Below, piece after piece: positions 14,113-49,117 of a stretch of DNA of 64,000 bases (the first letter of the stretch is position 1; each line of letters starts with the position of its first letter). Both the position numbers and the translations under genes were made by a program. Under the pieces are notes generated by a model. It made no database searches. It was given only the letters and a program-made list of their open reading frames with translations, and was not told where the DNA came from. The DNA lies in the NCBI RefSeq assembly GCF_001677475.2, contig NZ_CP015229.1; one strand, written 5' to 3'. Source of the stretch: Escherichia coli (GTDB lineage: Bacteria; Pseudomonadota; Gammaproteobacteria; Enterobacterales; Enterobacteriaceae).

Positions 14113-14243
14113 CCCGACTCCTTTTTTGTATAGATAAACCATCAGCTGATAGTTTACCTGAAGAATATAGAGAAGTACTTACTTAACATTTTCCCATTTG
14201 GTACTATCTAACCCCTTTTCACTATTAAGAAGTAATGCCTACT

Positions 14244-16316: not shown

Positions 16317-16417
16317 ATAAATTCCTAAAGTTGTTTTCTTGCGATTTTGTCTCTCTCTAACCCGCATAAATACTGGTAGCATCTGCATTCAACTGGATAA
16401 AATTACAGGGATGCAGA

Positions 16418-19400
16418 ATGAGACACTTTATCTTTCAGGACGAAAAATCACATAAATTCTGGGCGGTGGAGCAGCAGGGAAACGAGCTGCATATCAACTG
16501 GGGAAAAGTCGGCACCAACGGGCAAAGTCAGGTAAAAAGCTTTGCTGATGCTGCGGCGGCGGAAAAAGCGGAACTGAAGTTGATTGCGGAGAAGATTAAG
16601 AAGGGGTATGTGGATGATGGTTCGCCAGAAACCATCATAAACTCTCCGATATCAAGCACAGTTTCAGTACAAGAGTTAGCAATATCAACAGGAAACTTCA
16701 CAACGACTGAAACGGCACAGCCACAAGCGATGCCCACGTTGGAAACGCCGCCCTGGCTGAAGAACGGTGAGTCAATTGTTATTTTTGCCAATGCTGAACC
16801 CGCGCCGTTTAGCCATCGTCACTTGATTAATGATCCTCTGGACATTGTTGATAAAGATGGCTTCTTCTGGATACAACTAAAAGAGTACCCATATTGGGCA
16901 GCATTTTACCTTGCCTGTCTGCAAAAGTTCGATGTCAGCCAATGCCAGTCAGAATGGCAATTGGCGTTACAGGAAACTATTTCGCGCATCCAGAAATTAC
17001 AGCAAGACGGATCGTTGCTTTCCGACGTCATATTGACACTGACAAGATTAATTATCGGCCGCCCCGGTCGCCCTCATACATGGCTGGATAGCATAGTGCA
17101 ACTGCGAGGCCTTGAGTATGCCACTGAGTTAGTTATCGCTATGCAGCATGTACAAATGACTGACGACGCAAATACCGATCCTACAAAAAATGCCACTTTA
17201 AAACTTCATTACAATAGTCTTTTTAGTGCGCTGAGAAGAGGGGAAATGGCAGACAATTATTATCTACCTGTAGTAAGCCTTAGCCACGATATTTCCGACA
17301 TGCGCTACAAATATGGATTCAGCGACGAAATAGAGTTACGTTTACGAGAACACCTTTCGCACACAGATGAGGAAACCTGGCAACGCTGTGCTAATAAACT
17401 CATAGATGCTCTCCCTTCACTGCCTCCCCGCAAACGCCCATTAATTGCTTTTTTGCTACCAGAAAAACCAGATATTGCCAATCAGATAGCCCTGGAAATT
17501 GCCCCTATGCATGATTACCCAGAGATTGAGTGGCTTTCCCTTGTCACAACTGACCCGCAAGCAACGTGTCTGCTGAAGAATTTCCATCAACTTGAACTCA
17601 CAACGGGATGGGGAGGCGATATGACGAATCGTTGTATTAAAACCCTACTGCGTGAACAAGGTCTTAATGCCCTGTCACGTCTGCAAGAGGGAGTTAACGA
17701 TAGTTATCCTGTCAGACACGCACTTCAGGAAATTAACCATCCTGATGTCGTTACGTTGTTTATCAAAGAGGAATGTGCCATAGGTGTCGAAATTTCGGCT
17801 TCGAAGTACCCAGAATCGGCGCTTTATGCCCTTACTGCAGCTTTGCTTAGTGCTAAAAATCTGAGGTATTCTCGCCTGATGGAACGAATTGTATTAGGTA
17901 ATGCTCAAACCTTGCGTAATACAATGCCCTGGTTGAGTGAGGAACAGAAACAACTTTTATTCAGTTATTTTCCTCAACTTCATGCTAAAGAAGAGATAGC
18001 CAATGCTTGTGAGTTACCCGGTATATTAACTAATCCAATTTGGCTGAAGAAAAAGAATAAATCCGCCACGACGATATTTACATTACCCGTATTGCCTCTG
18101 GAGTCCATTGGCCCCAACCCTCAGCCACAACCCGAAGCAGAAATACCTTCTACTGCTGAAGTCTTACGCCACCTGGGATTCAGTAGTGGAGCATTTGAAG
18201 AGAATAATCCTGATCCAGAAAGATTCGATATTAAATGGGGCGTAACCAAAACGGCCATTCGTCTTCTGGAAACGGAAGATTATGAATCGTTGTTAAATAC
18301 CCGACCAAAGTATGATTATGAAGGTTTTATTACCTTTTATGTATCCATACTCACTCGTCTACCAGCAGAGAAAGCGCTCTCAATCTGGAATGGACTCTCA
18401 CACATGCACCTCGTGGGTGCTGAGAAAGTGGTTGAGCGATTTGGTCTATCTACGGTACCGGGTCTGTTGCGTTATGCCCTGGTAAACCCTAAGGAGGCGG
18501 TTCCCCTGGCAGCACAATTCGGTGCAACTGAAGTTGCCCTGCTGATGGCCCGCGCATTTTGCCAGTTAAAATCCGTACGAGATGTCGCCGAATATTGGCT
18601 CACCACCTACCCGGAACATGCCATTACCGGGCTGCTGCCTATTGCGCTGGGTAAACCAGTTAAAGAACAACAAGATGCCCGGATGACATTACGCTACCTG
18701 GTCAATAATGGTCATCTCGCGTTGCTGAAAAAAATTGCCAGCCGTTACCAACAACCTGAGGTAATAACTGCACTTACCGACTTTTTAGCAGCAGATCCGC
18801 TGGAAAACTATCCACAGAAAATCGCCAAACTCCCTGGGTGGTGTTCACCAGAAGTATGGCACCGCCCGCTTCTGCGCAGTAACGGCAAGGCACTTTCAGA
18901 TTCAGCCATCCTGCACCTGTGCACCATGCTCTCTTTTCCCCGCGAAGCCACCCTTTACCCAGGGATAACACAGGTAATCAAGGCCTGTACTCCGCAATCT
19001 CTTGCCGATTTCGCCTGGGATCTCTTCCTCAGTTGGGAATCTGCCAGTGGCTCCGCTAAAGATAACTGGGCATTTACCGCACTGGGGATTCTGGGCAACG
19101 ATGACACCGCCCGCAAACTCACCCCGCTCATCCGCGCCTGGCCGGGGGAATCTCAGCATAAACGCGCCACTGTCGGGCTGGATATTCTTGCTGCTATCGG
19201 CAGCGATATCGCCCTGATGCAGCTTAACGGCATCGCGCAAAAGCTAAAATTTAAAGCCTTGCAGGATCAGGCAAGAGTTAAAATCGCCCAGATTGCCGAA
19301 AGCCGCCAACTCACCGTCGCAGAAATGGAAGACCGGTTAGCGCCGGATCTCGGACTGGATGATAACGGCTCACTACTGCTGGATTTCGGCCCACGCCAGT

Positions 19401-20254
19401 TCACCGTCAGCTTTGATGAATCCTTAAAACCGTTTGTGCGCGATGCTTCCGGCAGCCGCCTGAAAGACCTGCCCAAACCGAACAAAAGCGATGATGAAAC
19501 ACTGGCTGAGGAAGCGGTAAATCGCTACAAGTTGTTGAAAAAAGATGTCCGCACGGTGGCAGCGCAACAAATTTCGCGTCTGGAAGCCGCCATGTGTCAG
19601 CGTCGCCGCTGGACAGCAGAACAGTTCCGCCTGTTTCTGGTTGAGCATCCCCTGGTACGTCATATCACCCAACGTCTGATGTGGGGCGTATACGATGCAG
19701 ATAATCAGCTTATCACCTGTTTTCGCGTGGCGGAGGATGGCAGTTTTAGCGACGGTCAGGATAACCCGTTAACCCCTGCGCAGGGTAGCATCGGTATCCC
19801 GCATGTGCTGGAAATCCCGGCCCCGCAGGCGGCTGAATTTGCTCAACTGTTTTCTGACTACGAACTCCTGCCACCGTTCCGTCAACTCGATCGCCCCTGG
19901 TCTCAGCTCTCTGATTCAGAAAAAAACAGCAACGATTTGCAGCGCTGGGCTGGTCGCCAGGCACCAAGTGGGCGCGTCGCCGGGCTGATGAATAAAGGCT
20001 GGCAACGGGGCGATGTGCTGGATGGTGGCGGCTATTACTCATTTTATAAAGCTGTGGATGATGGCTACGTCGAACTGAGTGTGACACCCGGCTTCAGTGT
20101 TGGATTACCCGTCACCGAAATCAGCGCCAGCCAAAAAATTGAGCACATTCAGTTGTGCAAACTGACGCCGCACAAATCGGTTTATCCCTTCTCCGTGCTC
20201 GACGACATCACCGCCAGCGAACTCATTAACGATATTGAATCACTGTTTGATTAA
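16418..20254 (+). CDS. molR: giant WGR-domain protein with DUF4132-like C-terminal region, paralog 1
   Basis: 1278-aa ORF; N-terminal ~65 aa with FQDEKSHKFWAVEQ...WGKVG (WGR-type) motif; first of three tandem paralogs; positional equivalent of K-12 molR (symbol assigned by position and recollection). Confidence 0.8.
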   Translation: MRHFIFQDEKSHKFWAVEQQGNELHINWGKVGTNGQSQVKSFADAAAAEKAELKLIAEKIKKGYVDDGSPETIINSPISSTVSVQELAISTGNFTTTETAQPQAMPTLETPPWLKNGESIVIFANAEPAPFSHRHLINDPLDIVDKDGFFWIQLKEYPYWAAFYLACLQKFDVSQCQSEWQLALQETISRIQKLQQDGSLLSDVILTLTRLIIGRPGRPHTWLDSIVQLRGLEYATELVIAMQHVQMTDDANTDPTKNATLKLHYNSLFSALRRGEMADNYYLPVVSLSHDISDMRYKYGFSDEIELRLREHLSHTDEETWQRCANKLIDALPSLPPRKRPLIAFLLPEKPDIANQIALEIAPMHDYPEIEWLSLVTTDPQATCLLKNFHQLELTTGWGGDMTNRCIKTLLREQGLNALSRLQEGVNDSYPVRHALQEINHPDVVTLFIKEECAIGVEISASKYPESALYALTAALLSAKNLRYSRLMERIVLGNAQTLRNTMPWLSEEQKQLLFSYFPQLHAKEEIANACELPGILTNPIWLKKKNKSATTIFTLPVLPLESIGPNPQPQPEAEIPSTAEVLRHLGFSSGAFEENNPDPERFDIKWGVTKTAIRLLETEDYESLLNTRPKYDYEGFITFYVSILTRLPAEKALSIWNGLSHMHLVGAEKVVERFGLSTVPGLLRYALVNPKEAVPLAAQFGATEVALLMARAFCQLKSVRDVAEYWLTTYPEHAITGLLPIALGKPVKEQQDARMTLRYLVNNGHLALLKKIASRYQQPEVITALTDFLAADPLENYPQKIAKLPGWCSPEVWHRPLLRSNGKALSDSAILHLCTMLSFPREATLYPGITQVIKACTPQSLADFAWDLFLSWESASGSAKDNWAFTALGILGNDDTARKLTPLIRAWPGESQHKRATVGLDILAAIGSDIALMQLNGIAQKLKFKALQDQARVKIAQIAESRQLTVAEMEDRLAPDLGLDDNGSLLLDFGPRQFTVSFDESLKPFVRDASGSRLKDLPKPNKSDDETLAEEAVNRYKLLKKDVRTVAAQQISRLEAAMCQRRRWTAEQFRLFLVEHPLVRHITQRLMWGVYDADNQLITCFRVAEDGSFSDGQDNPLTPAQGSIGIPHVLEIPAPQAAEFAQLFSDYELLPPFRQLDRPWSQLSDSEKNSNDLQRWAGRQAPSGRVAGLMNKGWQRGDVLDGGGYYSFYKAVDDGYVELSVTPGFSVGLPVTEISASQKIEHIQLCKLTPHKSVYPFSVLDDITASELINDIESLFD

Positions 20255-20266
20255 AAGGATTTAGCA

Positions 20267-23200
20267 ATGAAAACCTATATTTATCAGGACGAAAAATCAC
20301 ATAAATTCTGGGCGGTGGAGCAGCAAGACAACGAGCTGCATATTAGCTGGGGTAAAGTCGGTACTAACGGGCAAAGTCAGGTAAAAAGCTTTGCTGATGC
20401 TGCGGCGGCGGAAAAAGCGGAACTGAAGTTGATTGCGGAGAAAACAAAAAAGGGCTACGTAGAAGAAGTATCCGTGATAACACCGACATCTGTCCCCGTC
20501 CAGGTTATCGAATGCCCCGAAATAGCCCCTTTGCCACAAGACAAACCAGTATTTGTTGGAGACAACCTCCCCTGGCTGGCAGACGACGCCCAAATCATTT
20601 TACCGACAGAGGTTGCGCCAACCACACTAAGTCATCGACGCTGGCCTGGCGATCCTGTGCCACAGGAGAATGAATTAACTCTGCTACGCTCCGTCGCCGC
20701 GAATACTCACCGACGTTTTAAAAAGGTGATCACCTTCGATTACAGCACCTGTTCACTGGACTGGCAGCAGGCGATAACACAAGCAGTGGGCCTTATCGAC
20801 TCGCCGATTAGCACCACGCTACCACCGATGGTTCTGGCGGTACTGGTTGCGCTGGAACAAGGCTTCAATCGTAACGATCACGAAGAGTTAATGGATCAAA
20901 TTGTCCAGGAAGGTGGTCTGGAATATGCCACTGAGGTTGTCATTGCACTACAATTCATCCGCTTCGACTGGGATTATGATGCCCATCTTATTACGTTCAC
21001 CCCGGATGACAGGCAGCCTGGCTATCTGTTGCGCTTTGCCTCGGTTGAAATGCGCCTGCGCAAGCATTTCTCACTTGCAAATGACGATGTATGGCAGCGC
21101 TGCGCCGACAAACTGATTGCCGCTCTCGGAAACATGCCCGCCTGGCACCAGCCGCTGGTTGCACTATTGTTGCCGGAAAAACCAGAAGTAGCTCATGAGA
21201 TTGCCAGACATTTTTGCGGGCAAAAAGGGTTATATGCGCTGGAATGGCTAAAACTGACGGTCACCGATGCTCAGGTATTAGCAGACCTGGAAAAATACTA
21301 TCCAGGACAGCCTGGGCAGGTATTTGATGATTACTATGGCGGTAACATCTGGTGTGCGACAGCACTCCAGGAGCAAGGAGTCACTGCGCTGGCCCGTTTT
21401 GCCCATTACGCTACTGGTGACACATGTGGTGAAGTGTTGATGCATATCAACCACCCGCAGGCACTTACACTACTTATCCATGCAAGCGAGCAAGGAAAGC
21501 GTTGCCACGATCGCATGACAAAGGCTTTCGTTCGCTTCCCACACGCAGCGCTGGCGGCATTAGCAGAACTTCTGGCACAAAAAGATGAAAAGCGCTGGCG
21601 CATGATGCTAATGACGATGCTTATCTCGCAACCGGCACTAGCAGAACAGGTCACTCCCTGGCTCTCAACCCCCGCAGTTGCAGTGCTGAAATCATGCCAG
21701 CAACAACTGACACAGCCCTCAAACCATGCCAGCGCCGATCTACTGCCAGCCATATTAGTCTCACCGCCCTGGCTTTCGAAAAAGAAAAAATCTGTAATGC
21801 CGGTATTGGATTTAACGCCATTACCGCTGGAGTCATGCTGCACATTGACCGAGACGGCAGAAAAAGAGATTCATGCAAGGCATCGCTGGCACGCACATCA
21901 AATAGACGTCGGCCAAAAAGAGGATATTCAGAACTACCTGACACGTCTGGGTTTCAATCGCTGGAATAATGGCCAGTATATGAAAGCGTCTGATGCTGTT
22001 GTAGAACTCTGGCAGAGGGGAGATTATTCTGCGCTAATCAGCGAATTTAAAACCTTCTGGCACTCCTATCAACGGGAATGGCAGCTTTACATGTTAGCCG
22101 CCCTGCCTATCGAAAAAACAGCGCAGGCGTGGAATGTCCTCAGTAAAGAGCCACACGTCGGTGTCGAGTTTGTCATGACGCACCTGCAACTCGCTGGGTT
22201 ACAGGGTTTTATTCACTCCTTTTCACGCTATCCACAAGAAGCTCTGCCTGTAGCACAATATTTTGCGGCTATCGAATTAGCGCCACTGATCGCCCGCGCC
22301 TTCAACAAACTCAAAACCCTACGACAAGACGCCCGCACCTGGCTGCTGAAATACCCGGAACACGCCATTACCGGCCTGCTACCTTCGGCGCTCGGCAAAG
22401 CCGGTGAAGCACAGGATAACGCCCGCGCTGCCTTGCGTATGCTTACCGAAAACGGTCATCAGCCATTACTGCAAGAAATCGCCCGGCGTTATAACCAGCC
22501 GGAAGTAACAGATGCGGTGAACGCTCTGCTTGCGCTCGATCCCTTAGATAATCACCCGACAAAAATCCCCACTCTTCCGGCCTTTTATCAGCCATCGCTC
22601 TGGACGCGCCCGGTATTAAAAGCAAATGCCCAATCACTGCCAGATAGCGCCCTCCTACGCCTCGGCGAAATGCTCCGCTTCCCTCAGGAAGAGGCACTGT
22701 ATCCGGGATTATTGCAGGTGAAAGCCGCCTGTACCGCCGACTCACTGGCTGAATTTGCCTGGGATCTGTTTACCGCCTGGCAGACCGCTGGCGCACCGTC
22801 GAAAGAAAGCTGGGCGTTCACTGCGTTAGGTGTTCTCGGCAACGATGACACCGCCCGCAAACTGACGCCTTTGATTCGCGCCTGGCCTGGTGAATCCCAG
22901 CATAAACGCGCCACCGTCGGGCTGGATATTCTCGCTGCTATCGGTAGTGATATCGCCCTGATGCAGCTTAACGGGATCGCCCAGAAACTGAAATTCAAAG
23001 CATTACAGGAGCGGGCAAAAGAAAAAATTGCCGACATTGCCGAGAGTCGCGAACTGACGGTAGCGGAGCTTGAAGATCGGTTAGCACCGGATCTCGGTCT
23101 GGATGATAACGGTTCGCTGCTGCTGGATTTTGGCCCACGGCAGTTCGCCGTCAGCTTTGATGAAACCTTAAAACCGTTTGTGCGCGATGTTTCCGGCAGC

Positions 23201-24028
23201 CGCCTGAAAGACTTACCTAAACCCAATAAAAGCGATGATGAATCACAGGCGAACGATGCTGTTAACCGCTACAAATTGCTGAAAAAAGATGCGCGTACCG
23301 TCGCCGCCCAGCAGGTAGCAAGGCTGGAATCCGCCATGTGCCTGCGCCGCCGCTGGTCGCCGGAAAACTTTCAGCTCTTCCTGGTTGAGCATCCGCTGGT
23401 TCGTCACTTAACCCGCCGTCTGATTTGGGGCGTTTATAGCGCCGAAAACGAGCTACTGGCTTGCTTTCGCGTGGCGGAAGATAACAGCTACAGCACCACA
23501 GACGATGATCTTTTCACCCTGCCGGAAGGCGATATCTCTGTTGGTATTCCTCACGTTCTGGAAATATCACCCACGGATGCCGCTGCCTTTGGTCAGCTTT
23601 TTGCCGACTACGAACTGTTACCGCCGTTCCGCCAGCTTGACCGCAACAGTTACGCGCTGACAGAAGCCGAACGCAACGCCAGTGAACTGTCCCGCTGGGC
23701 CGGCAGAAAATGTCCGAGCGGTCGAGTAATGGGGCTGGCGAATAAAGGCTGGATGCGTGGTGAACCGCAGGACGGTGGCTGGATCAGCTGGATGATCAAA
23801 CCTCTGGGCCGCTGGTCGTTAATTATGGAAATCGATGAAGGTTTTGCGGTCGGCATGTCGCCAGCCGAACTGAGTGCCGAGCAACTCTTAAGCAAGGTGT
23901 GGCTATGGAAAGGCAAAGCAGAAAACTATGGCTGGAGGAGTTATTCAACACAGGAAGCGCAGTTCTCCGTACTCGATGACATCACCGCCAGCGAGCTGAT
24001 TAGCGATATTGAATCTCTGTTTGAATAA
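20267..24028 (+). CDS. giant WGR-domain / DUF4132-like protein, paralog 2
   Basis: 1253-aa ORF 12 bp after paralog 1 (AAGGA SD); N-terminal WGR region and C-terminal ~450 aa highly similar to paralog 1, central region divergent. Confidence 0.85.
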   Translation: MKTYIYQDEKSHKFWAVEQQDNELHISWGKVGTNGQSQVKSFADAAAAEKAELKLIAEKTKKGYVEEVSVITPTSVPVQVIECPEIAPLPQDKPVFVGDNLPWLADDAQIILPTEVAPTTLSHRRWPGDPVPQENELTLLRSVAANTHRRFKKVITFDYSTCSLDWQQAITQAVGLIDSPISTTLPPMVLAVLVALEQGFNRNDHEELMDQIVQEGGLEYATEVVIALQFIRFDWDYDAHLITFTPDDRQPGYLLRFASVEMRLRKHFSLANDDVWQRCADKLIAALGNMPAWHQPLVALLLPEKPEVAHEIARHFCGQKGLYALEWLKLTVTDAQVLADLEKYYPGQPGQVFDDYYGGNIWCATALQEQGVTALARFAHYATGDTCGEVLMHINHPQALTLLIHASEQGKRCHDRMTKAFVRFPHAALAALAELLAQKDEKRWRMMLMTMLISQPALAEQVTPWLSTPAVAVLKSCQQQLTQPSNHASADLLPAILVSPPWLSKKKKSVMPVLDLTPLPLESCCTLTETAEKEIHARHRWHAHQIDVGQKEDIQNYLTRLGFNRWNNGQYMKASDAVVELWQRGDYSALISEFKTFWHSYQREWQLYMLAALPIEKTAQAWNVLSKEPHVGVEFVMTHLQLAGLQGFIHSFSRYPQEALPVAQYFAAIELAPLIARAFNKLKTLRQDARTWLLKYPEHAITGLLPSALGKAGEAQDNARAALRMLTENGHQPLLQEIARRYNQPEVTDAVNALLALDPLDNHPTKIPTLPAFYQPSLWTRPVLKANAQSLPDSALLRLGEMLRFPQEEALYPGLLQVKAACTADSLAEFAWDLFTAWQTAGAPSKESWAFTALGVLGNDDTARKLTPLIRAWPGESQHKRATVGLDILAAIGSDIALMQLNGIAQKLKFKALQERAKEKIADIAESRELTVAELEDRLAPDLGLDDNGSLLLDFGPRQFAVSFDETLKPFVRDVSGSRLKDLPKPNKSDDESQANDAVNRYKLLKKDARTVAAQQVARLESAMCLRRRWSPENFQLFLVEHPLVRHLTRRLIWGVYSAENELLACFRVAEDNSYSTTDDDLFTLPEGDISVGIPHVLEISPTDAAAFGQLFADYELLPPFRQLDRNSYALTEAERNASELSRWAGRKCPSGRVMGLANKGWMRGEPQDGGWISWMIKPLGRWSLIMEIDEGFAVGMSPAELSAEQLLSKVWLWKGKAENYGWRSYSTQEAQFSVLDDITASELISDIESLFE

Positions 24029-24037
24029 GGAAATAAC

Positions 24038-27000
24038 ATGAACAAGGAATTACCGTGGCTGGCGGATAACGCACAACTGGAACTGAAATATAAAAAAGGC
24101 AAAACGCCGCTCAGCCATCGCAGTTGGCCGGGCGAACCGGTGCCTGTTATTACTGAAAGCCTCATCCAGACACTGGGTGATGAATTGCTACAAAAAGCTG
24201 AGAAGAAAAAAAACATTATCTGGCGTTATGAAAATTTTTCACTGGAGTAGCAGTCCGCCATCACGGAAGCCATCAACTTGATTGGCGAACACAAACCCTC
24301 AATTCCGGCACGGACAATGGCGGCGCTAGTCTGTATCGCGCAAAAGGACAGCCAACAGTTGCTCGACGAAATCGTCCAACAAGAGGGACTGGAATATGCG
24401 ACTGAGGTGGTGATTGCACGCCAGTTTATTACACGATGTTATGAGAGTGATCCTCTGCTAGTGACATTGCAGTATCAGAACGAGGACTATGGCTATGGTT
24501 ATCGCTCAGAAACCTATAACGAATTCGATCTGCGACTGCGTAAGCATCTCTCTCTGGCAGAGGAAAGCTGCTGGCAGCGTTGCGCCGACAAACTCATTGC
24601 CGCACTGCCAGGAATACCCAAAATTCGCCGTCCTTTTATTGCGCTGGTCCTCCCGGAAAAACCAGAAATAGCCAATGAGTTGGTAGGTCTTGAATGCCCG
24701 CGGACTCATTTTCATTCTAAGGAGTGGTTAAAAGCTGTTGCTACTGCCCCCCGGGCGGTGAGAAAACTCGAACACTACTGGAGCCAGGATATATTTAGCG
24801 ATCGCGAAGCCAGCTACATGTCGCATGAAAACCGCTTCGGGTACGCGGCCTGCGCCGCCCTTTTGCGTGAACAAGGACTGGCAGCCGTTCCGCGCCTGGC
24901 AATGTATGCCCATAGAGAGGATTGCGGAAGCCTGCTGGTACAAATTAACCATCCGCAGGTCATCCGCACCTTGCTGTTAGTTGCTGATAAAAACAAACCC
25001 AGCCTGCAACGTGTGGCTAAATACAGTAAAAATTTCCCCCACGCGACACTCGCCGCACTGGCAGAACTGCTGGCGCTAAAAGAACCACCTGCGCGTCCTG
25101 GTTATCCAATCATCGAAGACAAAAAGCTGCCTGCACAGCAAAAAGCACGTGATGAATACTGGCGTACGCTGTTACAAACGCTGATGGCATCGCAGCCACA
25201 ACTGGCAGAAGAGGTGATGCCGTGGTTAAGTACTCAAGCCCGGTCAGTGCTGAATAGTTATTTATCGGCACCGCCTAAAACGGTTATTGATAGCACCGAT
25301 AACAGCCAAATGCCTGAAATCCTCGTTTCACCACCGTGGCGTAGTAAGAAAAAAATGACAGTTCCACGTCTTGATTTGGCACCGTTCGAATTAACGCCGC
25401 AAGTTTACTGGAAACCAGGCGAACGAGAGAGGCTTGCCGCCACTGAGTCTGCCCGTTATTTCAGTACGGAATCTCTTGCGGAACGCATGGAACATAAAAG
25501 TGGACGAGTTGTACTACAGGAGCTGGGTTTTGGAGATGATGTATGGCTGTTTTTGAATTATATACTCCCCGGAAAACTGGATGCTGCACGCAATTCACTC
25601 ATTGTTCAGTGGCATTACTACCCAGGGCGGGTTGAAGAGATCATGAATGGCTGGAGCTCCCCGGAAGCTCAATTAGCAGAACAGGCGCTTCGCAGCGGTC
25701 ACGTAGAAGTGTTAATTAACATATGGGAAAATGACAGCTACTCACGCTATCGTCGGGAAAAGAGTATCTGGAACCTGTATTTATTGGCGCAGTTGCCGCG
25801 TGAGATGGCTTTGACTTTCTGGCTACGTATCAATGAGAAAAAGCATCTGTCTGCGGGTGAGGACTATTTTCTCAGTATCTTCGGATTGGATGCTCTACTA
25901 GGTCTGCTGTTGGCTTTTTCACATCGTCCAAAAGAAACATTTCCGTTAATTTTAAATTTCGGCGCAACCGAACTAGCCCTGCCCGTTGCCCGCGTCTGGC
26001 GACGTTTCGCGGCGCAGCGTGATCTGGCCCGCCAGTGGATTTTACAATGGCCGGAACATACGGCTACTGCACTTATCCCTCTTGTCTTCACCAAATCCAG
26101 CGATAATAGCGAAGCTGCATTACTTGCCCTGCGTTTACTTTACGAACAGGGACATGGCGAGTTACTGCAAACCGTGGCAAACCGCTGGCAGCGTACAGAT
26201 GTATGGCCTGCCCTGGAGCAATTACTTAAACAGAGTCCAATAGAGATTTACCCGACACGCATTCCAAAAGCCCCTGATTTCTGGCAGCCGGCAATGTGGT
26301 CCAGGCCGCGCCTTATCACGAATAATCAACCTGTTACTGATGACGCTCTGGAAATTATCGGCGAAATGCTGCGCTTTACCCAGGGCGGACGTTTTTATAG
26401 CGGACTGGAACAGCTGAAAACGTTTTGCCAGCCGCAAACGCTGGCAGCCTTTGCCTGGGATCTTTTCACCGCGTGGCAACAAGCTGGTGCTCCCGCAAAA
26501 GACAACTGGGCATTTCTGGCGTTAAGTCTCTTTGGCGACGAAAGCACGGCACGGGATCTGACGACACAGATCCTTGCCTGGCCACAGGAAGGCAAATCTG
26601 CCCGTGCTGTCAGTGGTCTGAATATACTTACTCAGATGAATAATGATATGGCACTGATACAGTTGCATCATATATCGCAACGGGCGAAATCCCGCCCCTT
26701 ACGTGATAACGCGGCGGAATTTCTTCAGGTGGTCGCAGAAAATCGCGGGCTAAGCCAGGAACAGTTAGCGGACAGATTAGTCCCAACACTGGGTCTTGAT
26801 GATCCGCAGGCGTTGATTTTTGATTTTGGTCCACGGCAATTTACCGTTCGCTTCGATGAAAACCTTAACCCGGTTATCTTTGATCAGCAAAACGTTCGCC
26901 AGAAAAGCGTTCCCCGGTTGCGCGCCGATGACGATCAACTGAAAGCACCCGAGGCACTGGCCCGACTAAAAGGGCTAAAAAAAGATGCCACTCAGGTGAG

Positions 27001-27670
27001 CAAAAACCTGCTCCCGCGTCTTGAAACTGCCCTGCGCACCACCCGACGCTGGTCGCTGGCAGATTTTCATTCTCTGTTTGTTAATCATCCCTTTACCCGC
27101 CTGGTTACTCGGCGATTGATATGGGGTGTTTATCCGGCAAATGAACCGCGTCGTTTACTCAACGCCTTTCGTGTGGCCGCTGAGGGGGAGTTCTGCAATG
27201 CGCAAGATGAGCCAATTGACCTGCCTGCCGATGCTCTGATTGGCATTGCCCACCCGTTAGAAATGGCAGCAGAAATGCGCAGTGAATTTGCACAGCTTTT
27301 TGCCGATTACGAAATTATGCCGCCTTTTCGCCAGTTGGCACGGCGCACAGTGCTGCTCACGCCTGACGAGTCAGCCAGTAATAGTTTGAATCGCTGGGAA
27401 GGTAAATCTGCTACCGTTGGGCAACTTATGGGAATGCGATACAAAGGCTGGGAGTCAGGCTATGAGAACGCATTTGTCTATGACCTGGGCGAGTACCGGC
27501 TGGTCCTTAAGTTTTCATCCGGTTTTAACCACTACAATGTTGATAGCAAAGCGCTAATGAGCTTCCGTTCTCTTCATGTATACCGTGAGAATAAATCTGT
27601 CACTTTTGCCGAACTTGATGTGTTTGATTTGAGTGAAGCGTTAAGCGCACCCGACGTTATTTTCCATTAA
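24038..27670 (+). pseudogene. yehI: third paralog (YehI-like, lacks WGR N-terminus) interrupted by in-frame amber codon
   Basis: ORFs 24038-24250 and 24278-27670 are in the same frame, separated only by TAG at 24248-24250, which aligns with a Trp codon in paralog 2; read-through length would be 1210 aa. Confidence 0.75.
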
Positions 27671-27730: not shown

Positions 27731-28051
27731 ATGATCGTGCAAAAAGAGCTGGTCACTATTTACGATTATGAGGCCCCTGTACCTGAAGAGCCGTTTTCCT
27801 TCAGGCTTGAGATCCATAAACGCTCTGAATTATTTACAGGTTCCGTCTATCGACTGGAACGATTCCGGCTACGTCCAACATTTCATCAACGTGATCGAGA
27901 AGATGTCGACCCGCTAATAAATGATGCGTTGATTTATATAAGAGATGAGTTTATTGATGAGCGAAAATTACGAGGTGAATCACCTGAAACTGTAATAGCA
28001 ATTTTTAATCGCGAACTACAAAATATATTCAACCAACAAATAGAAAAATAG
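27731..28051 (+). CDS. yehK: small acidic protein of unknown function
   Basis: 106-aa ORF 60 bp downstream of paralog array; recognised as YehK. Confidence 0.8.
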   Translation: MIVQKELVTIYDYEAPVPEEPFSFRLEIHKRSELFTGSVYRLERFRLRPTFHQRDREDVDPLINDALIYIRDEFIDERKLRGESPETVIAIFNRELQNIFNQQIEK

Positions 28052-28375: not shown

Positions 28376-28426
28376 ATTATAAATCTCATTATCTTAATTG
28401 CAACGGGGTCCACCGATGGTTATAAT
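28376..28426. promoter_or_regulatory. divergent sigma70 promoters sharing a palindromic -35 hexamer
   Basis: Plus strand: TTGCAA (28398-28403), 17-bp spacer, TATAAT (28421-28426). Minus strand: same TTGCAA, 16-bp spacer, TATAAT (complement of 28376-28381). Confidence 0.7.
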
Positions 28427-28432
28427 TCGTTC

Positions 28433-28515
28433 GTTGGAACACGATGTTGCACAGGCTGCGGTGTTGGGCCTGAAAATAGTAAATAAAAGAACCTGCCTCA
28501 CCAGCAGGTTTTTTT
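28433..28515 (+). ncRNA. orzO: small RNA, candidate type I antitoxin (OrzO-like)
   Basis: Consensus promoter directly upstream; 5' end UUGGAACACGAUGUUGCAC is complementary (18 of 19) to toxin leader site at 28267-28285; ends at strong terminator CCTGC-N7-GCAGG plus T7 (28492-28515). Confidence 0.55.
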
Positions 28516-28626: not shown

Positions 28627-29715
28627 ATGTCACCGCAGAATAATCATCTGCAGCGTCCGCCTGCCGCTGTGTTATACGCCGATGAACTGGCAAAATTAAA
28701 ACAAAATGATAACGCACCTTGCCCGCCAGGTTGGCAGTTAAGTTTGCCTGCGGCCCGCGCTTTTATCCTTGGCGACGAAGCGCAAAATATTAGCCGTAAA
28801 GTCGTGATCAGTCCCTCCGCTGTCGAACGCATGTTAGTCACTCTCGCTACCGGGCGCGGTTTGATGTTGGTGGGGGAACCTGGCACCGCAAAATCTCTCC
28901 TGTCTGAATTACTGGCGACCGCTATTAGCGGCGATGCCGGGTTAACCATCCAGGGCGGCGCATCTACCACCGAAGATCAAATCAAGTACGGCTGGAACTA
29001 CGCCCTGCTTATCAACCATGGTCCGTCAACGGAAGCGCTGGTCCCTGCCCCGCTTTACCAGGGAATGCGCGACGGCAAAATTGTCCGTTTTGAAGAGATA
29101 ACGCGTACACCGCTGGAAGTACAAGACTGTCTGTTAGGTATGCTTTCTGACAGGGTAATGACGGTGCCGGAACTCACTGGTGAAGCCAGTCAGCTCTATG
29201 CGCGGGAAGGCTTTAATATTATTGCCACTGCCAATACCCGCGATCGCGGCGTCAATGAAATGAGTGCTGCGCTAAAGCGTCGCTTCGATTTTGAAACTGT
29301 CTTTCCGATTATGGATTTCGCCCAGGAGCTGGAACTGGTCGCCAGTGCTTCCGCGCGTTTGCTGGCCCATAGCGGTATTCCGCATAAAGTGCCTGACGCG
29401 GTACTGGAATTACTGGTGCGCACGTTCCGCGATCTGCGTGCCAACGGCGAAAAGAAAACGTCAATGGATACACTGACAGCGATTATGTCCACCGCTGAAG
29501 CCGTTAACGTGGCCCATGCTGTGGGTGTCCGCGCCTGGTTTTTAGCGAATCGCGCGGGGGAGCCTGCCGACCTGGTGGATTGTATTGCCGGAACCATCGT
29601 CAAAGATAACGAAGAAGATCGCGCGCGTCTGCGCCGTTACTTCGAACAGCGCGTCGCCACACATAAAGAAGCTCACTGGCAGGCTTATTATCAAGCTCGC
29701 CACCGCCTGCCGTGA
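28627..29715 (+). CDS. yehL: MoxR-like AAA+ ATPase (AAA_5 type)
   Basis: 362-aa product from ATG 28627; Walker A LVGEPGTAKS, Walker B-like VRFEEIT; ORF N-terminal extension from 28561 rejected. Confidence 0.85.
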   Translation: MSPQNNHLQRPPAAVLYADELAKLKQNDNAPCPPGWQLSLPAARAFILGDEAQNISRKVVISPSAVERMLVTLATGRGLMLVGEPGTAKSLLSELLATAISGDAGLTIQGGASTTEDQIKYGWNYALLINHGPSTEALVPAPLYQGMRDGKIVRFEEITRTPLEVQDCLLGMLSDRVMTVPELTGEASQLYAREGFNIIATANTRDRGVNEMSAALKRRFDFETVFPIMDFAQELELVASASARLLAHSGIPHKVPDAVLELLVRTFRDLRANGEKKTSMDTLTAIMSTAEAVNVAHAVGVRAWFLANRAGEPADLVDCIAGTIVKDNEEDRARLRRYFEQRVATHKEAHWQAYYQARHRLP

Positions 29716-29725
29716 GGAAAGATGC

Positions 29726-32005
29726 ATGAGCGAGCCGTTAATTGTCGGCATCCGGCATCATAGTCCGGCCTGCGCCCGGCTGGTGAAATCGTTAATCGAA
29801 AGCCAGCGGCCACGATACGTGTTGATTGAAGGCCCGGCTGATTTTAATGACCGGGTAGACGAACTGTTGTTAGCCCACCAGCTTCCGGTAGCTATTTACA
29901 GTTATTGCCAGTATCAGGACGGTGCGGCCCCCGGGTGTGGTGCCTGGACGCCATTTGCTGAATTTTCGCCAGAGTGGCAGGCGCTACAAGCCGCACGTCG
30001 TATTCAGGCACAAACTTACTTCATCGATTTGCCTTGCTGGGCACAGAGTGAAGAAGAGGACGATTCGCCTGATACGCAAGAGGAAAGCCAGACCTTGCTG
30101 CTGCGTGCCACCCGCATGGATAACAGCGATACCCTGTGGGATCACTTGTTCGAAGATGAAAGCCAGCAAACTGCATTACCCTCTGCGCTGGTGCACTATT
30201 TTGCCCAACTGCGGGGCGACTCCCCCGGAGATGCTCTCAATCGTCAGCGTGAAGCCTTTATGGCCCGCTGGATTTCATGGGCGATGCAGCAAAATAATGG
30301 CGACGTGTTAGTTGTCTGCGGAGGCTGGCACGCTCCGGCACTGGCAAAAATGTGGCGCGAATGCCCGCAGGAAATTAACACGCCAGAATTGCCCTCGCTG
30401 GCAGATGCCGTTACAGGTTGTTATCTCACACCCTACAGTGAAAAGCGCCTTGATGTGCTGGCAGGATACCTTTCAGGAATGCCTGCCCCGGTCTGGCAAA
30501 ACTGGTGCTGGCGGTGGGGCTTGCAGCAGGCAGGTGAACAACTGCTGAAAACGGTTCTTACCCATTTGCGCCAGCACCACTTGCCTGCTTCAACAGCGGA
30601 TATGGCTGCCGCTCATCTACATGCGATGGCACTGGCACAGTTGCGTGGTCATACACTACCGTTACGCACTGACTGGCTGGATGCCATAGCAGGCTCGCTG
30701 ATTAAAGAAGCCCTGAATGCGCCGTTGCCGTGGAGCTATCGCGGCGTTATTCATCCCGATACCGATCCGATTCTGCTAACGTTGATAGACACATTAGCGG
30801 GTGACGGATTCGGTAAACTTGCCCCTTCTACGCCACAACCGCCTCTGCCAAAAGATGTCACCTGCGAACTGGAACGTACAGGAATCTCTTTTCCGGCGGA
30901 GCTTACCTTAAATCGCTTTACCCCCGATGGACTGGCGCAAAGTCAGGTGTTACATCGGCTGGCAATACTGGAGATCCCAGGGATTGTGCGCCAGCAGGGA
31001 AGTACACTGACACTTGCAGGCAACGGTGAAGAACACTGGAAATTAACCCGCCCGCTTAGCCAGCATGCGGCATTGATTGAGGCCGCATGCTTTGGTGCCA
31101 CACTCCAGGAAGCCGCACGCCATAAATTAGAAGCCGATATGCTGGACGCGGGTGGAATCGGCAGTATCACCACATGTCTTAGCCAGGCGGCGTTAGCGGG
31201 TCTGGCGTCCTTCAGTCAACAATTACTGGAGCAACTCACATTATTAATCGCCCAGGAAAATCAATTTGCCGAAATGGGCCAGGCGCTGGAAGTGCTATAT
31301 GCCTTATGGCGGCTGGATGAAATTAGCGGTATGCAAGGCGCGCAGATATTACAAACGACGTTATGCGCGGCTATCGATCGCACGCTGTGGCTGTGTGAAT
31401 CTAACGGCAGACCAGATGAAAAGGAGTTTCACGCTCACCTGCATAGCTGGCAGGCGCTTTGCCATATCCTGCGCGATCTACATAGCGGCGTTAATTTACC
31501 CGGCGTTTCTCTTTCTGCGGCGGTAGCCTTACTGGAGCGCCGCAGTCAGGCGATTCATGCCCCGGCGCTGGATCGCGGCGCGGCTCTTGGCGCACTGATG
31601 CGTCTGGAACATCCCAACGCCAGTGCCGAAGCGGCGCTGACGATGCTGGCGCAGTTATCCCCGACACAGTCCGGCGAGGCGCTGCACGGTTTGCTGGCAT
31701 TAGCCCGTCATCAACTGGCCTGTCAGCCGGCATTTATCGCCGGTTTCAGTAGTCATTTAAATCAACGGAGTGACGACGATTTTATTAACGCCCTGCCCGA
31801 TTTACGCGCGGCGATGGCCTGGCTACCACCACGAGAACGCGGGACGCTGGCGCATCAGGTGCTTGAGCATTACCAGCTCGCACAGCTTCCCGTTTCAGCG
31901 CTGCAAATGCCGTTGCATTGTCCACCGCAAGCCATTGCACATCATCAACAACTCGAACAGCAGGCACTGGCATCGCTGCAACACTGGGGAGTTTTCCATG
32001 TCTGA
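29726..32005 (+). CDS. yehM: large protein of unknown function
   Basis: 759-aa product from ATG 29726 (GAGGAAAG SD; 10 bp after yehL stop); no recognisable catalytic motif. Confidence 0.8.
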   Translation: MSEPLIVGIRHHSPACARLVKSLIESQRPRYVLIEGPADFNDRVDELLLAHQLPVAIYSYCQYQDGAAPGCGAWTPFAEFSPEWQALQAARRIQAQTYFIDLPCWAQSEEEDDSPDTQEESQTLLLRATRMDNSDTLWDHLFEDESQQTALPSALVHYFAQLRGDSPGDALNRQREAFMARWISWAMQQNNGDVLVVCGGWHAPALAKMWRECPQEINTPELPSLADAVTGCYLTPYSEKRLDVLAGYLSGMPAPVWQNWCWRWGLQQAGEQLLKTVLTHLRQHHLPASTADMAAAHLHAMALAQLRGHTLPLRTDWLDAIAGSLIKEALNAPLPWSYRGVIHPDTDPILLTLIDTLAGDGFGKLAPSTPQPPLPKDVTCELERTGISFPAELTLNRFTPDGLAQSQVLHRLAILEIPGIVRQQGSTLTLAGNGEEHWKLTRPLSQHAALIEAACFGATLQEAARHKLEADMLDAGGIGSITTCLSQAALAGLASFSQQLLEQLTLLIAQENQFAEMGQALEVLYALWRLDEISGMQGAQILQTTLCAAIDRTLWLCESNGRPDEKEFHAHLHSWQALCHILRDLHSGVNLPGVSLSAAVALLERRSQAIHAPALDRGAALGALMRLEHPNASAEAALTMLAQLSPTQSGEALHGLLALARHQLACQPAFIAGFSSHLNQRSDDDFINALPDLRAAMAWLPPRERGTLAHQVLEHYQLAQLPVSALQMPLHCPPQAIAHHQQLEQQALASLQHWGVFHV

Positions 32006-33134
32006 ACTGAACGATCTTCTGACCACCCGTGAGCTACAACGCTGGCGATTAATTCTTGGAGAAGCGGCAGAAACGACGCTTTGTGGGCTGGATGACAACG
32101 CCCGGCAGATAGACCACGCGCTGGAGTGGCTGTATGGGCGCGATCCTGAACGGCTCCAGCGTGGTGAACGTTCCGGTGGATTAGGTAGCTCAAATCTCAC
32201 CACCCCTGAGTGGATCAACAGTATTCACACGCTGTTTCCGCAACAGGTGATTGAGCGGCTGGAAAGCGATGCCGTACTGCGCTACGGCATTGAAGATGTG
32301 GTGACGAATCTCGACGTGCTGGAACGTATGCAGCCTTCTGAAAGCCTGCTACGCGCCGTTTTGCACACCAAACATCTGATGAATCCCGAAGTACTGGCTG
32401 CCGCCCGCCGGATAGTGCGCCAGGTTGTTGAAGAAATTATGGCTCGACTGGCAAAGGAAGTTCGTCAGGCTTTTTCTGGTGTCCGCGATCGCCGTCGCCG
32501 CTCATTTATTCCACTGGCGCGAAACTTTGATTTCAAAAGTACTCTGCGCGCCAACCTGCAACACTGGCACCCGCAACACGGCAAGTTGTATATCGAATCC
32601 CCCCGCTTTAACAGCCGCATTAAACGCCAAAGCGAACAATGGCAACTGGTCTTACTGGTTGATCAAAGCGGCTCGATGGTTGACTCGGTGATCCACTCAG
32701 CGGTGATGGCGGCCTGTTTGTGGCAGTTACCCGGCATTCGTACCCATCTGGTGGCGTTTGACACAAGCGTCGTTGATCTCACGGCAGACGTTGCCGATCC
32801 GGTAGAACTATTAATGAAAGTACAACTGGGCGGCGGAACCAATATCGCCAGTGCCGTGGAGTATGGTCGGCAACTTATTGAACAACCAGCAAAAAGCGTC
32901 ATTATCCTCGTGAGCGATTTTTATGAAGGAGGTTCATCATCATTGCTGACGCATCAGGTGAAAAAATGTGTCCAGAGCGGCATCAAAGTGCTGGGACTGG
33001 CGGCGCTCGATAGCACCGCAACACCTTGCTATGACCGCGATATGGCCCAGGCACTGGTTAATGTCGGTGCACAAATAGCCGCCATGACGCCGGGCGAACT
33101 GGCATCATGGCTGGCGGAGAATCTTCAGTCATGA
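31998..33134 (+). CDS. yehP: von Willebrand factor A (VWA) domain protein with MIDAS motif
   Basis: 378-aa product; start ATG overlaps yehM stop (ATGTCTGA); MIDAS-like LVLLVDQSGSM. Confidence 0.85.
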   Translation: MSELNDLLTTRELQRWRLILGEAAETTLCGLDDNARQIDHALEWLYGRDPERLQRGERSGGLGSSNLTTPEWINSIHTLFPQQVIERLESDAVLRYGIEDVVTNLDVLERMQPSESLLRAVLHTKHLMNPEVLAAARRIVRQVVEEIMARLAKEVRQAFSGVRDRRRRSFIPLARNFDFKSTLRANLQHWHPQHGKLYIESPRFNSRIKRQSEQWQLVLLVDQSGSMVDSVIHSAVMAACLWQLPGIRTHLVAFDTSVVDLTADVADPVELLMKVQLGGGTNIASAVEYGRQLIEQPAKSVIILVSDFYEGGSSSLLTHQVKKCVQSGIKVLGLAALDSTATPCYDRDMAQALVNVGAQIAAMTPGELASWLAENLQS

Positions 33135-35131
33135 ATTCACTACGTCCGGAATTATTAGAACTGACACCGCAGGCGCTGACGGCGTTAAGCAATGCCGGTT
33201 TTGTGAAGCGCAGTCTTAAGGAACTGGAAAATGGCAACGTCCCGGAAATCAGCCATGAGAACGGTGTTTTACTCGCCACGTTCAGTGACGGTGTCCGTAC
33301 CCAACTGGCGAACGGTCAGGCACTGAAAGAGGCTCAGTGCAACTGCGGGGCCAGCGGCATGTGCCGTCATCGCGTGATGCTGGTGTTAAGTTATCAACGA
33401 CTTTGCGCTACCGCCCAGCCCACGGAAAAAGAAGAAGAGTGGGATCCAGCAATCTGGCTGGGAGAGCTGGCAACCCTACCCGATGTCACCCGTAAACGTG
33501 CACAAGCTCTTGTCGCTAAAGGCATCACCATTGAGTTGTTCTGTGCGCCGGGCGAAATTCCCTCTGCCCGCTTACCGATGAGTGATGTGCGTTTTTATTC
33601 CCGCAGCAGCATTCGTTTCGCACGCTGTGATTGTATTGAAGGCACGCTGTGTGAACATGTAGCACTGGCTGTGCAGGCCTTCGTCGAGGCCAAAACTCAG
33701 CAAGCGGAATTTAACCATTTGATCTGGCAGATGCGCAGCGAACACGCCGCATCATCTGACGATCCATTTGCCAGCGAAGAAGGCAAAACGTGTCGTCAAT
33801 ATGTTCAGCAATTAAGTCAGGCATTATGGCTGGGCGGCATCAGCCAGCCGCTTATTCATTACGAGGCTGCTTTCAGCCGCGCGCAGCAAGCGGCGGAACG
33901 CTGCAACTGGCGCTGGGTAAGTGAATCACTACGACAGCTACGGGCAAGCGTTGATGCCTTCCACGCCCGCGCCAGCCACTACCATGCCGGAGAATGCTTA
34001 CGTCAGCTTGCGGCATTAAACAGTCGATTAAATTGCGCACAAGAGATGGCCCGGCGCGACAGTGTTGGTGAAGTTCCTCCCATGCCGTGGCGCACGGTCG
34101 TTGGCGCTGGCATTGCCGGAGAAGCAAAGCTTGATCATCTGCGGCTGGTGTCTTTAGGTATGCGTTGCTGGCAGGATATTGAGCAGTATGGTTTACGCAT
34201 CTGGTTTACCGATCCCGACACCGGCAGTATTTTGCATCTTTCGCGTAGTTGGCCGAGAAGCGAACAGGAAAACTCACCGGCAACGACGCGTCGGCTGTTT
34301 AGTTTTCAGGCTGGCGCACTGGCTGGTGGGCAAATTGTTTCACAAGCAGCAAAACGCAGTGCCGATGGCGAGCTGCTGTTAGCTACCCGCAACCGCTTAA
34401 GCAGCGTTGTGCCGCTGTCGCCAGACGCCTGGCAAATGTTGAGCGCGCCATTGCGCCAGCCGGGCATTGTGGCTTTGCGGGAATATTTACGCCAGCGTCC
34501 CCCCGCCTGCATACGGCCTCTTAATCAGGTGGATAACTTATTTATTCTGCCAGTCGCTGAGTGTATTTCACTCGGTTGGGATAGCAGCCGCCAGACGCTG
34601 GATGCGCAGGTAATCAGCGGCGAAGGTGAAGATAATCTGCTGACGTTATCACTGCCAGCCTCAGCCAGTACGCCTTATGCCGTTGAACGTATGGCGGCGC
34701 TTTTGCAACAAACAGAGGACCCCGTGTGTCTGGTTTCTGGCTTTGTCAGTTTTGTAGAGGGGCAATTGACACTGGAACCACGGGTGATGATGACAAAAAC
34801 CCGCGCCTGGGCGCTGGACGCAGAAACTGCGCCTGTGGCACCGCTACCTTCTGCCAGCGTTTTGCCTGTGCCGTCTACCGCTCATCAGTTGCTGATGCGC
34901 TGCCAGGCGTTACTTATTCAACTGCTCCATAACGGTTGGCGCTATCAGGAACAGAGTGCTATTGGTCAGGCAGAGTTGCTGGCGAATGACCTCACCGCGG
35001 TGGGTTTTTATCGGCTGGCACATGTGTTGGCACAATTTCGTAATACAGAAAGCGAGGCATGGGTAGAAGCAATGAATAACGGTGTTTTACTTTGCGAACA
35101 ATTATTCCCCATGCTTCAGCAACAAGGATGA
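33131..35131 (+). CDS. yehQ: protein with two SWIM-type zinc-finger motifs
   Basis: Start ATG overlaps yehP stop (ATGA); two CxCx5CxH motifs (CNCGASGMCRH from 33338; CDCIEGTLCEH). Confidence 0.8.
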   Translation: MNSLRPELLELTPQALTALSNAGFVKRSLKELENGNVPEISHENGVLLATFSDGVRTQLANGQALKEAQCNCGASGMCRHRVMLVLSYQRLCATAQPTEKEEEWDPAIWLGELATLPDVTRKRAQALVAKGITIELFCAPGEIPSARLPMSDVRFYSRSSIRFARCDCIEGTLCEHVALAVQAFVEAKTQQAEFNHLIWQMRSEHAASSDDPFASEEGKTCRQYVQQLSQALWLGGISQPLIHYEAAFSRAQQAAERCNWRWVSESLRQLRASVDAFHARASHYHAGECLRQLAALNSRLNCAQEMARRDSVGEVPPMPWRTVVGAGIAGEAKLDHLRLVSLGMRCWQDIEQYGLRIWFTDPDTGSILHLSRSWPRSEQENSPATTRRLFSFQAGALAGGQIVSQAAKRSADGELLLATRNRLSSVVPLSPDAWQMLSAPLRQPGIVALREYLRQRPPACIRPLNQVDNLFILPVAECISLGWDSSRQTLDAQVISGEGEDNLLTLSLPASASTPYAVERMAALLQQTEDPVCLVSGFVSFVEGQLTLEPRVMMTKTRAWALDAETAPVAPLPSASVLPVPSTAHQLLMRCQALLIQLLHNGWRYQEQSAIGQAELLANDLTAVGFYRLAHVLAQFRNTESEAWVEAMNNGVLLCEQLFPMLQQQG

Positions 35132-35255
35132 AATAGTGCTTTTTACTAAGAGTTCTACTCCAGTTCCGGACTGCTCACGCCACGGCATTAGGCATATCCT
35201 ATATAGCCCCTGGTGAGAGTCACCAGTTTCTTGATTAAATAAAATGGAGTTTTAC

Positions 35256-48944: not shown

Positions 48945-49117
48945 GATGAGCATTCAGATAGTGGTTCACGCGCACGGGTTGCGCACCGCCGGAGTAAGGA
49001 TTTACTGAGGCTAGCGACGCCATCATAACGAGCAAAAAGTGCGATCGTCAAAGGAGAATCGTGAGGAAATGCTGCATTGCTGACATTTACGCCAGCAATG
49101 CAACACAAAAGAACTTT

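Follow-up and report, generated by a model that had tools for sequence, protein, structure and literature searches.

What does the yehLMPQ operon of Escherichia coli do? The operon was analysed here in a stretch of 64,000 nucleotides (contig NZ_CP015229.1 of assembly GCF_001677475.2), referred to below as the window, in which it occupies positions 28627-35131. Its genes are among the larger uncharacterised ones remaining in the best-studied bacterium. The existence of the operon is not new, since the genes are annotated and a YehL subfamily has been named; in the literature YehL is mentioned solely as the member after which one MoxR subfamily, of the seven distinguished by the Houry laboratory, is named (PMC3893208). 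The statement of the original prediction that no function is established agrees with the literature searched, which excludes most subscription journals and assigns none to yehLMPQ. The best explanation of the comparisons described below is that yehLMPQ is the motor-and-enzyme half of a self-contained five-family cassette, with an array of WGR/DUF4132 genes as its obligate partner, which is found across hundreds of bacterial species. As to its mode of action, we propose a hydrolase machine that is gated by ATP and MIDAS and has recognition subunits of a nucleic-acid type, and give this mechanism as a whole a probability of roughly 40%.

The operon in Escherichia coli

The four genes and the signal that follows them are listed below.

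28627-29715, plus strand: yehL, an open reading frame (ORF) of 362 amino acids encoding a MoxR-class AAA+ ATPase of the YehL subfamily
29726-32005, plus strand: yehM, an ORF of 759 amino acids, starting 10 bp past the yehL stop
31998-33134, plus strand: yehP, an ORF of 378 amino acids encoding a CoxE-type VWA protein, overlapping yehM by ATGTCTGA
33131-35131, plus strand: yehQ, an ORF of 666 amino acids, with an ATGA overlap with yehP
35210-35226, plus strand: terminator-like hairpin in the gap between yehQ and yehR, from a consensus scan only

The tight packing was confirmed at all three junctions (10-bp gap, ATGTCTGA and ATGA), and the ORF translations contain the Walker A, the MIDAS and both CxCx5CxH motifs named in the original prediction. 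Of the 5426 complete E. coli genomes, 5413 match a 6.9-kb stretch around the operon, and 5202 (about 96%) cover at least 80% of it at a single chromosomal site, where the annotation always reads yehL, yehM, yehP, yehQ and yehR. The gene order in K-12 is metG, molR (pseudogene), yehI, yehK, yehL, yehM, yehP, yehQ (pseudogene), yehR, yehS and btsRS. Within the operon the GC content is 0.53-0.56, as opposed to 0.45-0.47 at its edges. The best full-length identity of yehLMPQ to sequenced E. coli is only 96.9%, and the synonymous divergence (dS) of metG (14235-16277) from K-12 is 0.17, which together point to a divergent source lineage; the window may stem from a deep-branching Escherichia lineage.

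A conserved five-family cassette

One genome of each species was scanned for relatives of YehM, and at least 555 of these genomes, from three phyla (Proteobacteria, Myxococcota and Actinobacteria), contain one. Eighty loci were kept, from Enterobacterales, Oxalobacteraceae, Comamonadaceae, Burkholderia, Xanthomonadales, Myxococcota and many actinomycetes, and every ORF in them was included in a phmmer census. A count of co-occurrence with WGR/DUF4132 genes had been proposed, and the census makes this link essentially obligate: DUF4132, YehL, YehM, YehP and YehQ are encoded on a single strand in 73 of the 80 loci, five loci with the last four families but without DUF4132 have a contig end just upstream of yehL, and the remaining two are cut before yehP or yehQ. 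One to four tandem DUF4132 paralogues are followed by yehL, yehM, yehP and yehQ in this order; three Burkholderia loci have the DUF4132 gene after yehQ instead. The four genes originally predicted as a unit are real, but the interval 28627-35131 does not cover the whole unit, which includes the DUF4132 genes. In the window these genes are the following, and they bear out the paralogue array that had been noticed upstream of the operon (16418-27670).

16418-20254, plus strand: DUF4132 paralogue A, in the position of molR/yehH, an ORF of 1278 amino acids with a WGR-like N-terminus
20267-24028, plus strand: DUF4132 paralogue B, 1253 amino acids, with WGR, solenoid and DUF4132
24038-27670, plus strand: yehI, DUF4132 paralogue C, 1210 codons, without WGR

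An additional DUF4132 gene downstream of yehQ, besides the upstream copies, is present in some loci (L018, 16012-18912, minus strand; L021, 15501-18353, plus strand; L049, 10180-13245, plus strand), so that the array can flank the motor genes on both sides. The distance between the last DUF4132 gene and yehL has a median of about 40 bp in the other loci, and the arrangement in Escherichia, with yehK and zor-orz inserted, is therefore regarded as derived. Neither yehK nor yehR is conserved, and no homologue of yehK was found in the other 80 loci. When 2717 flanking ORFs from these loci were clustered all against all, no sixth conserved family emerged beyond genus-level synteny, and no linked client enzyme, such as cox structural genes, is conserved in their 10-kb flanks.

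Junction distances were calculated with the in-frame start codon nearest to the upstream stop, a choice that favours short distances. Measured in this way, the yehM-yehP junction overlaps by 4 nt in 58 of 79 loci and the yehP-yehQ junction in 60 of 78, and yehM starts within about 15 bp of yehL in 73 of 80. Four cluster representatives of 1120-1180 amino acids from distant taxa (P0292, P0355, P0380 and P0388) contain a full YehM fused to a full YehP, and P0344 joins YehM to part of YehQ; these joins may be genuine or may stem from frameshift errors where the junctions overlap. The packing had been taken to imply an obligate stoichiometric complex. A multi-subunit complex is plausible in view of the conserved order, the coupling and the YehM-YehP fusions.

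The motor pair YehL and YehP

YehL matches the Pfam family AAA_5 (2.6e-34). Its Walker A motif GEPGTAKS (residues 83-90; 28873-28896), the FEE Walker B and the motifs TAN and KRRF are invariant across 41 orthologues, to which the window protein is 60-85% identical, actinobacterial and myxobacterial sequences included. The closest solved relatives in the PDB sequence search are the AAA_5 modules of Midasin, and with bpMoxR there is only a marginal, partial Pfam match (E 0.0024).

YehP matches the Pfam family VWA_CoxE (PF05762, 3.2e-72) over the entire model (positions 1-222 of 222). The MIDAS signature DxSxS is present as DQSGS (residues 222-226; 32661-32675), and the complete MIDAS, consisting of D222, S224, S226, T281 and D307, is invariant in 40 orthologues, which are 53-79% identical to the window protein. 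An N-terminal region of 150 amino acids is conserved as well. The PDB sequence search found no solved homologue of YehP. The yehP gene shares an operon with yehL in 78 of the 80 loci, a contig end cutting the remaining two.

All genes tested against K-12 are under purifying selection, with ratios of nonsynonymous to synonymous substitution rates (dN/dS) of 0.017 for yehL, 0.036 for yehP, 0.109 for yehQ, 0.145 for yehM and 0.167 for yehI, compared to 0.029 for metG. Judged by the alignments, the YehL/YehP motor pair is very strongly conserved, whereas the putative recognition parts diverge fast.

YehM, a putative hydrolase

YehM had been described as a protein with no recognisable motifs. This is wrong, as it matches the Pfam family DUF5682 (3.5e-96), and structure prediction, which had been suggested as a check, resulted in a high-confidence model with a recognisable fold. 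Two parts can be distinguished.

29726-30445, plus strand: N-terminal domain, about residues 1-240, hydrolase-like with a TIKI/TraB/ChaN fold in the predicted structure
30446-32005, plus strand: C-terminal region, an alpha-helical solenoid with one small alpha/beta insert

Among known structures, the model matches the haem-binding protein ChaN best. The N-terminal domain is modelled as an alpha/beta fold with a parallel beta-sheet core, as in ChaN, HopBA1 and Bcr135, and in the model has the fold of the TIKI/TraB/ChaN/erythromycin-esterase superfamily. The TIKI superfamily is defined by structures of ChaN (2G5G), HopBA1 (5T09) and the Bcr135 type together with a His/Glu/Arg active site (PMC6254334). 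The residues R10, H11, E35, H51, E83, D101, R163, R175, E176, G199 and H202 are shared by all 68 YehM sequences, and the invariant His, Glu, Asp and Arg residues among them sit at the ends of the core strands of the model. In sequence, H11, E35, R175 and H202, as putative catalytic residues, follow the order expected of the TIKI set. A PDB profile search with YehM returned nothing relevant.

Across orthologues the sequence identity of YehM is 29-88%, and its relatives form 2242 clusters at 50% identity. Full-length YehM (759 amino acids) accounts for clusters of 14,594 and 4,681 members; truncated clusters also exist.

YehQ, a putative nucleic-acid-type recognition subunit

The following elements were located in YehQ.

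33338-33370, plus strand: SWIM1, CNCGASGMCRH, residues 70-80
33626-33658, plus strand: SWIM2, CDCIEGTLCEH, residues 166-176
about 34121-34813, plus strand: tandem OB-fold module between a helical bundle and a C-terminal helical bundle, from the predicted structure

In SWIM1, C70, C72, C78 and H80 are invariant in 50 of 50 YehQ sequences, with a weak Pfam SWIM match (E 0.0055), and SWIM2 is intact in 31 of 50 (E 0.24). The modelled tandem OB barrels are superposable on those of the RPA70 DBD-A/B, HIN-200 and POT1 modules. For YehQ, too, no solved homologue was found in the PDB sequence search. The identity across orthologues is 23-89%. Full-length YehQ (666/667 amino acids) forms clusters of 11,049 and 4,644 members, truncated clusters are also present, and the K-12 gene is broken by a stop at codon 615. 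Rare E. coli variants of 605-709 amino acids, each a single-member cluster, differ by in-frame indels, 23-43 residues in size, within the first helical bundle (about residues 250-340; about 33880-34150 of the window).

The WGR/DUF4132 array and its regulation

Paralogue A has the same upstream region and start as molR of K-12, where the gene is frameshifted and thus a pseudogene. Paralogue B contains the Pfam domains WGR (5.6e-18, residues 7-67) and DUF4132 (2.6e-51), and PDB entry 2ra8 matches it in the WGR region only. In YehI, DUF4132 (2.1e-47) is found and WGR is not. In PARPs, WGR is known as the module that binds DNA breaks. The identity among the paralogues is 41-53%; A and B are 53% identical overall, but their first 65 or so amino acids, which comprise the WGR domain, are nearly identical, which suggests either gene conversion or strong constraint on WGR.

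The array is the variable part of the locus. Few E. coli have the extra copy B between molR and yehI, a coverage of 80% or more of the 12.3-kb three-copy array being reached in just 2 of 5426 complete genomes, and the identity of the array in E. coli is about 91-93%, compared to 96% for yehLMPQ. In the window, an in-frame stop interrupts the otherwise full-length yehI at codon 71 (24248-24250); the stop may reflect recent inactivation or a sequencing error. The protein is 93.5% identical to YehI of K-12.

The molR gene is activated by BglJ-RcsB (PMC3950696) and is listed among the genes with a known SOS box or LexA box (PMC6590174), and hns/stpA mutants show increased expression of yehL and yehM (PMC3686432). 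A CTG-N10-CAG element (16393-16408), which is identical in K-12, lies shortly before the molR start codon. A canonical LexA box, CTGT-N8-ACAG or a close match to the 20-mer consensus, was found nowhere in the 64-kb window.

Proposed mechanism and alternative explanations

In the proposed machine, YehQ and the WGR/DUF4132 proteins would recognise a nucleic-acid-associated ligand, the MIDAS of YehP would tether these recognition subunits and YehM to the YehL ring, and ATP hydrolysis would remodel the assembly, by which the YehM hydrolase, a peptidase or an esterase, would be switched on or handed its substrate. Its most likely role is in the response to foreign or damaged DNA, i.e., that of a conflict- or stress-type system, and the cassette was most likely acquired by horizontal transfer and is kept silent by H-NS. 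Several traits are conflict-like, namely the patchy spread over Gamma- and Betaproteobacteria, Myxococcota and Actinobacteria in differing contexts, the DUF4132 copy number of one to four, the silencing by H-NS, and the combination of a conserved motor with fast-evolving putative recognition parts. The elevated GC content of the operon, the divergence of the DUF4132 paralogues and the listing of molR with an SOS box are counted as conflict- or stress-like as well. The distribution appears patchy and transfer-prone, the peptidase-type domain of the YehM model could serve as output, and a conflict reading of these traits is possible. Individual components are broken in single strains (molR and yehQ in K-12, yehI in the window). 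A more specific version, in which PARP-type WGR and RPA/HIN-like OB domains detect foreign, broken or protein-blocked DNA and the MoxR/MIDAS motor gates a TIKI protease, is doubtful; if it is true, almost all E. coli and hundreds of further species would possess an unrecognised class of DNA-sensing machine, either a new innate-immune system or a bacterial protease pathway for DNA-protein crosslinks.

A number of observations weigh against the proposed machine and its role. The neighbourhood had been read as typical of a defence or conflict island, a reading that is weak or unsupported: no PADLOC model (PADLOC-DB v2) matches the cassette or its sampled neighbours, with 0 matches for 8 local and 6 flanking proteins from other taxa; the flanks in other genera contain ftsE, rpoH, accD, a gene of the cystathionine gamma-synthase family and MFS transporters; and the prevalence of about 96% is accompanied by dN/dS values of 0.02-0.17. 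The locus is near-core at a fixed site in E. coli. No positive selection was detected by whole-gene or 60-codon sliding dN/dS against K-12, a single yehI window with a value of 1.09 (11 versus 3 changes) not being meaningful. The cassette is also rare on plasmids and effectively absent from phages, with one weak match in the phage collection; mobile-element cargo was rejected, as only 38 plasmid records match, several of which are mislabelled chromosomes or very large replicons. With regard to the proteins, OB and SWIM folds bind proteins too, and ChaN is a haem-binding protein and no enzyme. The TIKI assignment of YehM rests on a predicted structure and is limited to the fold, because the first Glu of the 2His/2Glu motif is not evident, there being none two residues before H11, and because the Pfam scan yields DUF5682 alone, without a TraB match. 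Finally, the order of events in the mechanism is purely inferred.

An alternative is a dedicated chaperone for maturation or cofactor insertion, of the kind represented by CoxD/CoxE, NorQ/NorD, CbbQ/CbbO or the chelatases, in which YehL/YehP would remodel an unlinked client enzyme, and YehM (ChaN-like, possibly metal- or haem-binding) and YehQ would act as adaptors or cofactor carriers. It is less likely than the conflict or DNA-stress role and, taken by itself, unlikely. The best Pfam family of YehP, matched over its full model, is VWA_CoxE, the top structural match of YehM binds haem, the strong conservation of YehL and YehP with low dN/dS fits a housekeeping machine, and housekeeping genes are found in the flanks. 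According to PMC3893208, characterised MoxR-VWA pairs act in maturation or metal insertion, predicted conflict systems aside, and molR once received its name for a phenotype in molybdate utilisation (Lee et al., 1990, cited by PMC7824862). However, a client enzyme gene is linked in 0 of 80 loci, WGR, SWIM and tandem OB are typical of nucleic-acid recognition rather than cofactor handling, and a dedicated chaperone would not usually be accompanied by tandem paralogues that vary in copy number and diverge fast. In addition, molR is a pseudogene in K-12, yet the molybdate use of K-12 is normal.

Still more improbable is a DNA-damage-linked processing of nucleoprotein, for instance the clearing of proteins trapped on DNA, in which breaks or single-stranded DNA would be located by WGR and OB domains and the trapped protein, pulled out by the AAA+/VWA pair, would be degraded by the YehM peptidase, comparable to a eukaryotic protease that works with Cdc48. 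This agrees with the break-binding WGR of PARPs, the modelled combination of an RPA70/POT1-like tandem OB with a TIKI-type putative peptidase, the near-core locus under purifying selection, the place of molR among the LexA-box genes and the conservation in the window of the K-12 upstream sequence with CTG-N10-CAG. That element, however, departs from CTGT-N8-ACAG, and the window lacks a perfect LexA box. Moreover, yehL has its own H-NS-bound upstream region and is separated from the array by yehK and the toxin-antitoxin module, the patchy distribution would be odd for a repair system, with no Salmonella genome among the matches listed, and two pseudogenes of the set are tolerated in K-12.

That Escherichia retains no more than a decaying remnant, without function, of a cassette acquired horizontally, as suggested by the molR frameshift and the yehQ stop at codon 615 in K-12, the yehI stop at codon 71 in the window, the truncated YehM and YehQ clusters and the silencing by H-NS, is highly implausible given dN/dS values of 0.017-0.167, with yehL as constrained as metG (0.029), the dominance of full-length YehM and YehQ among the sequence clusters and the retention of the locus by 96% of the complete genomes.

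With the TIKI-type domain of YehM, the OB module of YehQ and the WGR/DUF4132 partner, the operon now has a testable model; features such as the TIKI-like domain and the tandem OB module are not described in the literature searched, which has the scope stated above. If the proposed machine holds, the known outputs of MoxR-VWA machines would be extended by a TIKI-family hydrolase and their inputs by recognition through WGR/SWIM/OB, and a function might be assigned to DUF4132 and DUF5682.

Neighbouring features

Between the array and yehL lie yehK and, as had been predicted, a type I toxin-antitoxin module, zorO/orzO, located between yehK and yehL.

27731-28051, plus strand: yehK, a small Escherichia-specific gene between the DUF4132 array and yehL, outside the conserved cassette
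28194-28105, minus strand: ZorO ORF, a hydrophobic toxin of 29 amino acids, divergent from OrzO
28376-28426: divergent promoter-like sites of zor-orz
28440-28515, plus strand: OrzO RNA (Rfam RF02083 OrzO-P, 101.3 bits, gathering score 60)
28490-28510: OrzO terminator hairpin

The location of zor-orz agrees with Fozo et al. (2010), who report the module to be absent from K-12 and tandemly duplicated in O157:H7; in the window it is single-copy. Elsewhere in the window, Rfam identified a Peptidase-S11 RNA motif (48949-49029, minus strand, 72.8 bits), presumably the pbpG leader, and a TPP riboswitch (5266-5362, minus strand, 71.2 bits) upstream of thiM.

Comparison with known systems

The vWA-MoxR-VMAP systems (Kaur et al., 2020, PMC7159879) share with the yeh cassette the MoxR and vWA core, fast-evolving putative sensors, a peptidase-type output and an enrichment in large-genome soil bacteria, Actinobacteria and Myxococcota. 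However, the yeh cassette is without VMAP, iSTAND and beta-propeller, and its peptidase-like domain is separate and not fused to vWA; Pfam scans of YehL, YehM, YehP and YehQ revealed no VMAP, iSTAND, beta-propeller or vWA-fused effector domain. Membership in the MoxR-vWA ternary systems of Kaur and Aravind was rejected, as the VMAP-type parts are missing and the paper defining these conflict systems mentions neither SWIM, WGR and DUF4132 nor YehL (PMC7159879).

The N-terminal domain of YehM resembles the TIKI/TraB/PrgY/ChaN/erythromycin-esterase proteins, such as RRSP, HopBA1 and Tiki1, in its predicted parallel-sheet alpha/beta fold. Its invariant residues, a His after strand 1, a Glu after strand 2, an Arg, and a His after a later GGxH strand, follow one another as the catalytic residues of RRSP do (PMC6254334), and are putative catalytic residues. 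It differs from this superfamily in the missing Pfam TraB match and first Glu, in the fused solenoid of about 500 residues and in its MoxR-VWA operon context. Midasin/Rea1, whose AAA_5 modules are the closest solved relatives of YehL, follows a common logic with the cassette, an AAA_5 ring being combined with a MIDAS domain by which a ligand is gripped and pulled. Midasin, however, is one giant polypeptide acting on pre-ribosomes, whereas the parts of the yeh cassette are separate proteins with other partners.

The MoxR/VWA pairs RavA-ViaA, NorQ-NorD, CbbQ-CbbO and CoxD-CoxE resemble the yeh cassette in that a gene for a MoxR-class AAA+ protein lies next to one for a VWA protein whose MIDAS is intact. 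The yeh cassette is a variant of this MoxR-VWA theme, which does without a linked client enzyme and adds, as obligate members found in no characterised pair, a TIKI-fold/solenoid family, a SWIM/tandem-OB family and the WGR/DUF4132 family.

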